Of a DNA stretch of 64,000 nucleotides, positions 7,471 through 57,525 are shown in pieces. The DNA is from Prorocentrum cordatum (lineage: Eukaryota), in the NCBI GenBank assembly GCA_963575745.1, contig CAUYUJ010000122.1, positions 1-64,000 of the forward strand. The letters are read 5' to 3'. Position 1 is the first letter of the stretch; every line of letters begins with the position of its first letter. The notes beneath the pieces were generated by a model, which was given only the letters and a program-made list of their open reading frames with translations, made no database searches and was not told where the DNA came from. Position numbers and translations under genes: made by a program.

Positions 7471-7697
7471 CTTTGGAGTCCCGAAACGGTGCGGTGACGG
7501 ACCGTGCGGTGACCTCGAAATCCCCCAAGACCTCACCGCACGGTCCGTCACTGCACGGTCTTGGGACCCCAGAGGCCCTGGTCGCCCGAGACGTCCTCGG
7601 AGAACGCCCCCGAGTCCCAAAACCGTGCGGTGACCCCGAATCCCCACCGACGCACCACATGGTGTGGTCACCACCCCGTTTGGTGGCCCCTGGTCTC
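7471..7697 (-). mobile_element. Introner-like dispersed repeat 'family A' forming an entire PUF intron
   Basis: Aligns end-to-end with 56056-56244 plus 56526-56560. Direct repeat GGAGACC at both junctions. Confidence 0.8.
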
Positions 7698-7815
7698 CAC
7701 GTTACCGAGGATGTCCCGGAGCGCGCACTCGAGACGGCCCCTGGGGAAGTGCTCAATCAGGCGCTCGAGGACCCTGCACCCGTAGGGCTGCCGTGCCAGG
7801 TCCGCTGCACTCCAC
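7698..7815 (-). CDS. Pumilio/PUF protein exon (not in the ORF track frame)
   Basis: WSAADLARQPYGCRVLERLIEHFPRGRLECALRDILGNV, with a PUF 'YGCRVLERLIEH' motif. CAG| acceptor matches phase 2 of the previous exon. Donor is GA (or GT three nt earlier). Confidence 0.9.
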
Positions 7816-8049
7816 CTGCGCCCGGAGGAGGGGAGAGGGAGGGGGAGAGGGAGGGAGGGAGGGAGGGGCGGAGGGAGGGAGGGAGGGAGGGAGGGGAATG
7901 AGGCAGAAGGAGGGCGACAAGGCGGGAGGAGGAGGTCCTGCGCATAACACCCTGGCCTGACACGCTAACACCATACCCTGCCCAGACGACCACACTTTGG
8001 GAGATAAGGAGGTTGTGGGGGGGGAGAGGGGGGGAACCAACATCTGACT

Positions 8050-8440
8050 CAATCGATCTCACTATCGATCTCACTCAACGGGACACCACGGGACACCATG
8101 GGACACCACGGGACACTTGTCGGTCTCATTATCGATCTCATTATCGATCTCACTCAACGGGACACCATGGGCCACCACGGGACACCACGGGACACCGGAG
8201 GACACTTCTCGATCTCAGTATCGATCCCAGTATGGATCTCACTATCGATCTCACTCAACGAGACGCCATAGGACAGCATTGGACACCTCGGGACACCACA
8301 TCGATCTCACTATCGATCTCACTATCGATCTTACTCAACGGGACACCACGGGACATCACGGGACACCTGTCGATCTCACTATCGATCTCACTATCGATCT
8401 CACTCAACGGGACACCACGGGACACCAGCGGGACACAGCG
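8050..8440. repeat. Composite minisatellite of alternating ATCGATCTCACT (12-bp) and GGGACACCAC (10-bp) blocks
   Basis: Both motifs are directly visible in repeated alternating runs. Confidence 0.9.
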
Positions 8441-54900: not shown

Positions 54901-55184
54901 TTGACGATTCGACGCTATCCTAGGCCAGATTTGTTCAACCCCGACGTCGTCGATGCACCGGCGATGCGGCGCGATCTTCTGACCCCATCCGCTCCACTCC
55001 CATTCCAAATGATCCGACGTCAGGAAGAACATACAACATTATGATAAACACGACAGGATCCGTTGACCACGCTTTTCCGGGGCATCTTTCAGACCAGATC
55101 ACTCTGCGAGGGCCCCAGGGCCCGAAACAGAGGGAAAGCGCCAAGCGTGCAGAAAAAGCGACGCCTGGATCTCTGGGCCTGAAC

Positions 55185-55330
55185 TCGGCCACGCGCAGAG
55201 GTGGGTAGGGGGAGGGGGGAAGGCTTCTCAGAAGCACTTGATCTTCTCAGTAGGCGCGGGCCTGATCTAGAGACGTAAGGCCAGCGCTTTCTAAGAAGCA
55301 GCGTCCTTCTAAGAAGCCTTCCCTCCTCTC
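55185..55330. repeat. Dispersed repeat, inverted copy of ~1725-1870
   Basis: CCACGCGCAGAGGTGGGTAGGGGGAG...CTTCTAAGAAGCCTT matches the reverse complement of 1731-1865. Confidence 0.8.
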
Positions 55331-55964
55331 CTGACCCCCTTTGTGCGCGCCGCCAATCCCAGACCCCCGACGTCGTGAGTTTTCCGCAACGTCGACCCCC
55401 AGAGGTCAGGACCCCTTCCCTGGTTCTGCGTCGTTTTCTGACGGTCCCGGGGCCCAGGAAGCACCCCAGAGGCCGAAACGGGCGAACGACCTCCCGTCGT
55501 GATTTTTCGCAGCGCGAGGGGGTCTGGGCCTTTTTCGCGCGCCGACCATGAGCGGCCTCCACAAGGGTGCCTCCTGGGGTCGGAGTAGCTGGGGTCGGAG
55601 GGTCGCGCCGCATCGCCGATGCGTCGCCGATGCGGCGCGATGCGCAGCCCGACTCTCTCCATGCCGACGTCGCTGGTGCCTCGCCGACGTCGCCGGGGCA
55701 TCGCCGCTGCATCGGCGATGCGGCGCGAGCCTCCGAAGCCAGGTGCTCGGACCCCACCTGGGAGGCCTCTACAGTCGGGGCCCTGAAGAAGGAACTCTTT
55801 TGGTTGGGGAGGGGCTCCGCGTTCCTTAAGTGTTTCGCAGCTTGCCTCAGGCTTTCCTTATGTTTTCGACAGGAAATCGAAGGTTAACTTATGGAAAAAA
55901 GGGGCCTCGTTCCTTATTTAGGGTTCCTTAGGTCAACGCCCCGGCTGTAGTTTGCGCGCCGCCA

Positions 55965-57525
55965 ATGGGCGGCCTCCGCCAAAGGTGCCTCCTGCTCTCC
56001 CTCCTGGCCCTCGCGGTCCTCAGCGGGCTCCGGCTGGCCCTCGTGGGCGCGCCAGGCCCGGGGGCCCCCGAACGGGGTGGTGGCCACGCCGTGCGGTGAG
56101 TCGGCGGGGATTCGGGGTCACCGCACGGTTTTGGGACTCGGGTCGTTCGCCGAGGACGTCTCGGGCGACTGGGGCACCCGAGGTCCCAAGACCATGCGTT
56201 GACAGACCGTGCGGTGAGGTCTTGGGGGATTTCGAGGTCACCGCCGCGCCCCAAGCTCCTCCTCCTCCTCCTCCCTCCTCCTCCTCCTCCTCCTCCTCCT
56301 CCTCCTCCTCCTCCTCCTCCTCCTCTCCCTCCTCCTCCTCCTCCTCCTCCTCCCTCCTCACTCCTCCTCCTCCTCCTCCTCCTCCTCCTCCTCCTCCTCC
56401 TCCTCTCCTCCTCCTCCTCCTCCTCCTCACTCCTCCTCCTCCTCCTCCTCTCCTCCTCCTCCTCCTCCTCTCCTCCTCTCTTCTCCTTCTCTTCTCCTCC
56501 TCCTCCTCCCCCCCTCCTCCTCGGGGGTCCGTCACCGCGCCGTTGCGGGACCCCAGCCAGGCCGCGCCCCAAGCCCACCGCCGCCCGAGCCCACGGGCGC
56601 GGCGCAGCTGGCCGGGGAGGCGCCCGCGGGCCCCACGGCGCCGGCGGGGGGCCCCGCGGGCGGCCGCCCGGCGCCGCGCGCCCTCGCCCTCGACAGCGAG
56701 CAGGGGCGCGAGGCGTCCCGGCTTCGGGGGTGGACGGACCTCCTACCCGCGCCGCGGATCTCCTCTGCCGCGCCGCGACGGGCAGAGTCTGCACGCTGCC
56801 TGGCTCGCCCCTCTGACGTTCAGCTCGTCCTCGCCCCGCGCCGGACAAGCCGCACACCCGAGCCGAGGTCTGAGACGTTGTCCCGTTGCCCCCCAGAGAT
56901 GTCGGAGGTTGATAGACCTCCTACTAGTACCCTGACACGTCGATTAAGGAATTGGCCGTCTTCGCTTCGCGAGAGGGCGTCGCGGCCGTCCTTTTTGCGG
57001 GTCCGGGTCCGTCGGTTTCGGTCCCAGGCCGTTTTCACGAAGGGGAGGTCTACTAAAGGGAGGTGTGTCCATCGCCGATGGCTCGCCTGGAGGCCAACCA
57101 AAGGAATGTGTCAGTCGGGCCTGTCCCTCTAGCAGGAGGAATACAGTCAAAAACCCTAATCAGGACTCTCAGGGTACCCTTGCGTCCTTGCTCTTCCTTG
57201 CTCTTGCGTCCTTGAGGTTTTCGTCGTCCGCCGCCCCAAAAATCCCAACTTCGGCTTCCAAGGGTCTTGCGTCCTTGCCGCGCGTCCTTATTAGGGTTTT
57301 GACTGCATTCAGAAATAGCAGAAAAATAGTCAGGGGACGAGTTCGTGTTGTAGTTTTGGGCATTATTTGCGTATGTTTCGCGTGTTTTTTCGTCCAGGAT
57401 CCCTCTGTAGGAGGACATGCCCGACCTAAGGCGAGGCGTCCTGGCTCGCCTGGAGGCCCAGCAACGAATGTCCTAAACACCTTTTGTGGTCTGCACGAAG
57501 TGCTTTTGGAGCAGTTCTGGCCGAG
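55965..57525 (+). CDS. N-terminal exons (55965-56055, 56561-56907, 57059-57103, 57431-57525) of a signal-anchored protein
   Basis: MGGLRQRCLLLSLLALAVLSGLRLALVGAP hydrophobic anchor. The frame stays open across GC-AG, GT-AG and GA-AG junctions, giving a Pro/Ala-rich stem. Probably continues into the 58084 ORF. Confidence 0.6.

Follow-up and report, generated by a model that had tools for sequence, protein, structure and literature searches.

Among the sources of large-scale intron gain, introners, that is intron-generating transposons, have the best support, and dinoflagellates, in which genes are the most intron-rich, use unusual GA and GC donors. The element treated here lies in two copies on a stretch of 64,000 nucleotides of the Prorocentrum cordatum contig CAUYUJ010000122.1 (the whole stretch is called the window in the following), which has a GC content of 58.9% and the typical features of nuclear DNA from a dinoflagellate. 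One copy is exactly an intron in the model of a gene with Pumilio repeats, the other a proposed intron of a putative second gene, and the element is most likely a non-autonomous inverted-repeat transposon that acts as an introner and takes its splice sites mostly from the duplication of its target. That intron-generating transposons occur in dinoflagellates, as the original prediction had stated, is already in print (10.1101/2020.10.14.339549 among others) and well established (also PMC9860276, PMC12130899, PMC11453091, PMC7789003), and the element is therefore a further example of a kind of introner already described and brings no new principle.

In Polarella glacialis, the introner-like classes 6, 8 and 10 have 8-nt duplications of the form G-H-N6 (Roy et al., 10.1101/2020.10.14.339549), class 3 uses five splice registers and both orientations, and GA donors are described as commoner in recently gained introns (10.1101/2020.10.14.339549). 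Like these elements, the present one is short and DNA-transposon-like, has a duplication of about 8 nt that starts with G, draws its splice sites from the duplicated target and its own end in registers that vary within the class, and has GA and GC donors. Unlike them, it belongs to another dinoflagellate order, going by the source label of the first host's protein, and is seen here in two copies, in one orientation and with one duplication of 7 nt, the comparison being one of descriptions and not of sequences. With the introner-like elements of Symbiodinium it has in common the inverted ends, the duplication, and a 5' splice site co-opted from the duplication, but those have 4-nt duplications and bring their own 3' splice site (10.1101/2020.10.14.339549, PMC9860276), whereas here the duplications are of 7-8 nt and the element gives at most the A of the acceptor AG.

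Also for P. cordatum 'introner elements' have been reported, in 2.4% of introns, by a pattern that asks for inverted repeats (8-20 nt) and direct repeats (3-5 nt) no further than 30 bases from the ends (Genome Biol 2023, PMC10666404). They carry the same species label as the element discussed here, but are pattern-defined only; the passages of its main text and supplementary note that were compared here give no sequence-defined family, duplication length or splice register, and its supplementary tables may list the Pumilio gene. In the titles and parts of abstracts on Prorocentrum introners no such sequence-defined family is named. It is conceivable, if rather doubtful, that outside the Suessiales and Syndiniales the element is the first introner family defined by its sequence, one from Prorocentrum with an 8-nt duplication, several splice registers and splice signals derived nearly all from the target, and with the footprint of an attempted excision and template-switch repair in its second copy.

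Another known group to compare with are the hAT-like miniature inverted-repeat transposable elements (MITEs), which are small, have inverted ends, an 8-bp duplication and strong hairpin structure, and are without coding capacity; the formation of whole introns is no defining trait of ordinary MITEs. The element resembles the hAT type in its small size, its inverted ends, its lack of coding capacity, its strong hairpin structure and its duplication of about 8 bp, which is 8 nt at copy 2, and 7 nt, or 8 with one mismatch, at copy 1. An autonomous partner, as hAT-type MITEs have, was not seen: there is no transposase among 335 of the 416 open frames of the window, and the terminal motif of the element is absent elsewhere in it.

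Two copies of one element and their flanking duplications

The original prediction had stated that 7471-7697 on the minus strand and 56056-56560 on the plus strand are alike from end to end, and on this point BLASTN and pairwise global alignment agree. When copy 1 with its flanks was compared to the window by BLASTN, 188 nt were found at 88.3% identity in copy 2 (56058-56244, E 5e-65) and the final 30 nt at 90% identity (56526-56555), and the global alignment spans the element completely. No third copy was found in the 64 kb with this query, all other matches being of 38 nt or less. The parts of the two copies are the following.

7472-7691, minus strand: element proper of copy 1, 220 nt between two GGAGACC (BLASTN, global alignment, repeat analysis)
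7648-7690, minus strand: 5' terminal inverted repeat of copy 1, which pairs with 7475-7517 (31 of 44 aligned columns match)
7475-7517, minus strand: 3' terminal inverted repeat of copy 1
7692-7698, minus strand: upstream target-site duplication of copy 1, GGAGACC; its first G is exonic, and the GA that follows (bases 2-3) serves as 5' splice site
7465-7471, minus strand: downstream target-site duplication of copy 1, GGAGACC; the last A of the element and its first G make the AG acceptor
56059-56555, plus strand: element of copy 2, 497 nt between two GCCAGGCC, microsatellite included (BLASTN, global alignment)
56051-56058, plus strand: upstream target-site duplication of copy 2, GCCAGGCC; its bases 6-7 are the donor GC
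56556-56563, plus strand: downstream target-site duplication of copy 2, GCCAGGCC; its bases 4-5 are the acceptor AG, and a contig match starts at 56556
56243-56256, plus strand: 14 nt that repeat the start of the downstream exon (56561-56574), inside the element directly before the microsatellite
56256-56522, plus strand: CTC/TCC microsatellite of 89 units (267 nt) inside copy 2

The terminal inverted repeats that are expected of an introner are present, imperfect and about 40 nt long. The motif AACGGNGNGGTGRC, which follows the pattern AACGG.G.GGTGAC, is found at three sites in each copy, two of them terminal and one internal, and its 6 matches in the 64 kb all lie within the two copies (0.77 expected; at least 6 in 0 of 100 shuffles). 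Folded as RNA, the intron of copy 1 reaches -139.2 kcal/mol, as compared to -106.2 +/- 5.0 for shuffled sequences (z -6.6). The predicted minimum free energy fold consists of two large internal hairpins and leaves the termini unpaired with each other, which is why it is not claimed that the ends are joined in the RNA. A microRNA precursor was considered and rejected, as in Rfam the element had only matches below the gathering threshold (the best, MIR5084, scored 49.2 bits where 110 are needed, and the rest 29 bits or less), which are generic hairpin matches. A 22-mer of the element had no match among metagenome contigs and the gapped element pattern none among viral contigs; three metagenome loci with the gapped pattern are unrelated and have only two 11-mers in common with it.

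Each copy is flanked by its own direct repeat, as had been predicted, with a spacing of 227 for GGAGACC (7 nt) and of 505 for GCCAGGCC (8 nt). Dinoflagellate introns have AG|G[ACT] at both boundaries, and this alone yields short boundary repeats. In the Pumilio gene, the boundary repeats of the five remaining introns are 3-6 nt long, against 7 at copy 1 and 8 at copy 2. For a chance control, random consensus-bearing sites of the window were paired with the microsatellites masked, which gave P 0.011 for 8 nt or more, and, with the weaker consensus of the copy-1 type, P 0.009 for repeats of at least 7 nt; an unmasked control (P 0.16 for 7 nt or more) was discarded, as it is inflated by GGA microsatellites. 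The repeats thus exceed what the splice consensus gives by chance and are best read as target-site duplications. At each copy, the element together with one duplication makes up the entire intron (at copy 2, the proposed one). The non-canonical donors GA (copy 1) and GC (copy 2) and the AG acceptors are as earlier claimed, both donors are supplied by the copy-specific duplication, and all splice dinucleotides sit in it except for the A of the copy-1 acceptor, which is the last base of the element.

The following course of events would account for this arrangement. A MITE-type non-autonomous DNA transposon of about 220 bp would have inserted in exon sequence at two unrelated places, and every insertion would have duplicated 7-8 nt of the target. 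If the targets held the dinoflagellate splice pair AG|G[ACT], or gained it via the terminal A of the element, the duplication would with its two copies supply a donor upstream and an acceptor downstream, so that the spliceosome could excise exactly the element plus one duplication, which would give the original message back. In the register of copy 1, bases 2-3 of the duplication would make the donor GA, and the last A of the element together with base 1 of the duplication the acceptor, and in that of copy 2 donor and acceptor would both lie within the duplication (GCCAG|GCC), so that nearly all of the splice information would come from the target, in registers that differ.

Copy 2 had been described as having an additional CCT insertion. 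Extra sequence is indeed there in the form of the 267-nt CTC/TCC microsatellite, but the insert also includes the 14-nt exon copy and CTCGGG: in this order, exon copy, microsatellite and CTCGGG replace 3 nt of the element. A 13-mer of the exon-derived part occurs twice in the window (56243-56256 and 56561-56574; 0.01 expected), and this part may be a repair footprint, that is filler DNA from template-switch repair. If this is true, an element that already functions as an intron would still be acted on by a transposase.

The two hosts and the proposed splicing of the copies

Copy 1 lies in a gene with Pumilio repeats, the relevant parts of which are these.

7471-7697, minus strand: intron 5 of the Pumilio gene, 227 nt, GA-AG, phase 0, equal to the element plus one duplication (exact mapping of the protein P0001)
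7698-7815, minus strand: exon 5 (Pfam PUF, E 2.2e-7)
7288-7470, minus strand: exon 6 (Pfam PUF, E 1.1e-9)
6603-33847, minus strand: whole gene model for P0001, 7 exons, each of which matches the window at 100% identity

P0001, a protein of 522 aa with the source label Prorocentrum cordatum, is encoded to 100% by the seven exons and reads ILGNVETLSGDQYGNFVIQ uninterrupted over the copy-1 junction. Three relatives (P0002-P0004, 72-77% identity) are continuous at the positions of copy 1 and of the neighbouring introns. Their source contigs have 945-2076 nt, and at least one of them appears to be transcript-like, as a frame of 272 aa on the contig of 945 nt leaves no room for introns. Together, the identical annotated protein and the three intron-free homologues support the splicing of copy 1 at the level of sequence comparison. 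A weak hint in the same direction comes from the word content of the sequencing runs X1-X14, which contain 0.38-0.43 of the words sampled from 7100-7835, a fraction close to the exonic part of this stretch (301/736 = 0.41); none of the 24 listed runs has half or more of these words.

The model of P0001 joins 33847-32836, which has no Pumilio repeats, to 27436-6603 on the minus strand over introns of 5.4 and 14 kb, and may fuse two genes, one of exons 1-2 without Pumilio repeats and the Pumilio part. One of the two long introns includes a gap of N letters (32287-32386). Within the 14-kb intron 3, on the same strand, lies an open frame of 806 codons with ordinary composition (15293-17710, minus strand), for which neither a Pfam family nor a PDB relative was found; this frame may represent a gene that is nested there or was wrongly merged into the model, or it may encode a transposon protein. 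Tandem arrays with longer units lie within introns of the model at 8040-8590 and 30160-32070.

The putative host of copy 2, an open frame that lacks an annotation, has the following parts.

55965-56055, plus strand: putative exon 1, with ATG and hydrophobic N-terminus (GC by codon position 0.84/0.50/0.93)
56056-56560, plus strand: proposed intron, 505 nt, GC-AG, phase 1 (frame test, contig, repeat analysis)
56561-56700, plus strand: putative exon 2, the 3' end being provisional (covered by contigs of the runs X1, X5 and X10)

It had been predicted that the removal of either copy restores the reading frame of the host, and this is what was found: without copy 1 exactly the database protein results, and with copy 2 excised the frame from the ATG at 55965 is open for more than 200 codons, whereas read-through stops after 44 codons. 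The GC content by codon position is 0.92/0.80/0.96 in 56563-56712 and 0.69/0.50/0.86 in the Pumilio coding sequence, and the second host thus looks coding-like in its composition. Protein queries for this host of 150 aa (with candidates of 82-263 aa) and of 46 aa (with candidates of 25-81 aa) were without any hit. A further search with candidates of all lengths matched only residues 110-150, to the database proteins P0006-P0008, and these residues were set aside as they belong to a separate repeat at about 56928-57078.

The splicing of copy 2 was addressed with contigs of four runs aligned to 56520-57580, a range that begins after the microsatellite and covers the acceptor side only, so that the joint 56055-56561 itself is outside of it. 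A contig of 171 nt from run X5 matches 56556-56626 without difference, while its 100 further letters depart from the 36 bases upstream. For a message that joins an exon 1 ending in GCCAG to 56561, the match is expected to stop at exactly this position, 56556, as the end of exon 1 recurs in the five bases ahead of the acceptor; the likelihood that a different upstream partner yields this contig start is about 1 in 1000. The contig is suggestive of copy-2 splicing, without being a proof. The stretches 56520-56555 and 56700-56915 are without contig in any of the 4 runs and were not used as evidence.

Several other joints were rejected as noise from repeats or paralogues, namely 56639-57430 (one contig each in X1, X5 and X10), 56667-57430 (one contig, X10) and likewise 56611-56653 (one contig, X10). 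The joints to 57430 have sides of 21 nt and the ends GC..AA and CC..AA, and the listed contig (1632 nt, X10) runs alongside with only 28 letters. The sole run labelled as RNA, X15, has one contig, at the repeat 57386-57429.

Weighing the alternatives

That the element is an introner with splice sites partly from the target duplication, as the original prediction had proposed, is supported by its presence in two hosts, by its inverted ends, by duplications beyond chance and by the identity of element plus duplication with the intron. We infer transposition as the origin of the copies, and an intron-making role of the element family genome-wide. The description of the hosts as unrelated genes holds in so far as the same element is found in two different hosts and both of the two copies make up a whole (proposed) intron, but the second host is not verified as a gene. 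Both copies are in sense orientation to the frame of their host, as had been noted, which with two copies is of no weight.

A number of points speak against this interpretation. The second host is without a Pfam family (among the open frames of 51.4-64 kb) and without a protein homologue in a collection that includes the annotated proteins of this very species, and may not be a protein-coding gene at all. The splicing of copy 2 depends on one contig with a depth of 3.8, from a run of unrecorded kind. No transposase or autonomous partner was found by Pfam in the window, where 335 of the 416 open frames were scanned and 81 frames at about 40.2-51.4 kb were not. The status as a family, and any bias in orientation, would rest on just two copies. 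Furthermore, one transposase usually makes one length of duplication, but the duplications are unequal, with 7 nt at copy 1 and 8 nt at copy 2, and that of copy 1 gets to 8 nt only with one mismatch.

Some of these points would fit an ordinary MITE that has nothing in particular to do with introns, and of which copy 1 happened to be removable from the Pumilio gene by chance, and copy 2 lies in transcribed non-coding repeat-rich DNA. The window is rich in palindromic MITE-like repeats, three of which adjoin the second host (55575-55756, 55769-55925 and 56933-57078), this host has neither homologue nor family, and just two copies are known. Against this speaks that both units of element plus duplication are bounded by G[AC]...AG|G and leave the frame open upon excision, that the match of the X5 contig ends at 56556 as the removal of the element predicts, and that the codon-position GC of both putative exons is like that of the Pumilio gene. 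An ordinary MITE is therefore an improbable explanation, albeit the one that fares best besides the introner.

The X5 contig might also stem from an empty site, that is an allele or paralogue that lacks the element, in which case copy 2 would be a polymorphic insertion. Such an empty site would give an identical contig picture, as its sequence is that of the spliced message whenever both splice sites are within the duplication; run X5 is of unrecorded kind, and the contig is judged by its matching part. This is nevertheless quite unlikely, as a DNA run of the organism should have nearly all words of the Pumilio stretch, whereas the fraction in X1-X14 (0.38-0.43) is near the exonic 0.41, which suggests that these runs are RNA libraries, and an empty site, even if true, would confirm transposition with duplication. 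An intron copied between genes by reverse splicing or gene conversion, without DNA transposition, would agree with two complete introns in the same orientation to their hosts, but it can be practically dismissed, as target duplications do not arise in reverse splicing and inverted ends are not required for it, whereas each copy here has a duplication of 7-8 nt and inverted termini, and as the flanks share only the splice consensus.

Other repeats of the window and meaning of the probable introner

Just 3' of putative exon 2 lies a dispersed repeat (56928-57078) that is also found at 37962-38107 and reaches a summed depth of up to about 2,970 in the runs X1, X5 and X10. The translation of this repeat is matched by the mentioned P0006-P0008, which are database frames of 61-72 aa, and a contig of X1 runs past 57049 into sequence that we take to resemble the dinoflagellate spliced leader. 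Further palindromic MITE-like families with lengths of 150-230 nt occur as the pairs 1697-1867/55185-55356, 2540-2705/12049-12188, 12748-12903/55769-55925 and 55575-55756/57854-58003, and more such repeats are at 38716-38947, 39963-40197, 41251-41446 and 50670-50827. A longer inverted dispersed repeat of about 570-700 nt (27547-28267/61600-62490, 73% identity) has one of its copies in intron 2 of the Pumilio model. TCC/GGA microsatellites of 150-500 nt are found at 6822-7096, 9925-10128, 13380-13925, from 18236 onward, and at 35435-35704, 37134-37333, 54208-54498, 56256-56522 and 60959-61241; such tracts overwhelm programs that look for repeats and make simple chance controls come out too high.

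What the window offers is a clean pair of copies in which a small transposon would have turned into an intron while bringing hardly any splice signal itself, and this in a species that forms blooms and has a very large genome. One of the copies is in a conserved Pumilio gene, and the two have different duplication registers. The contribution of the element is thus another example of an introner, together with an element sequence that can be tested.

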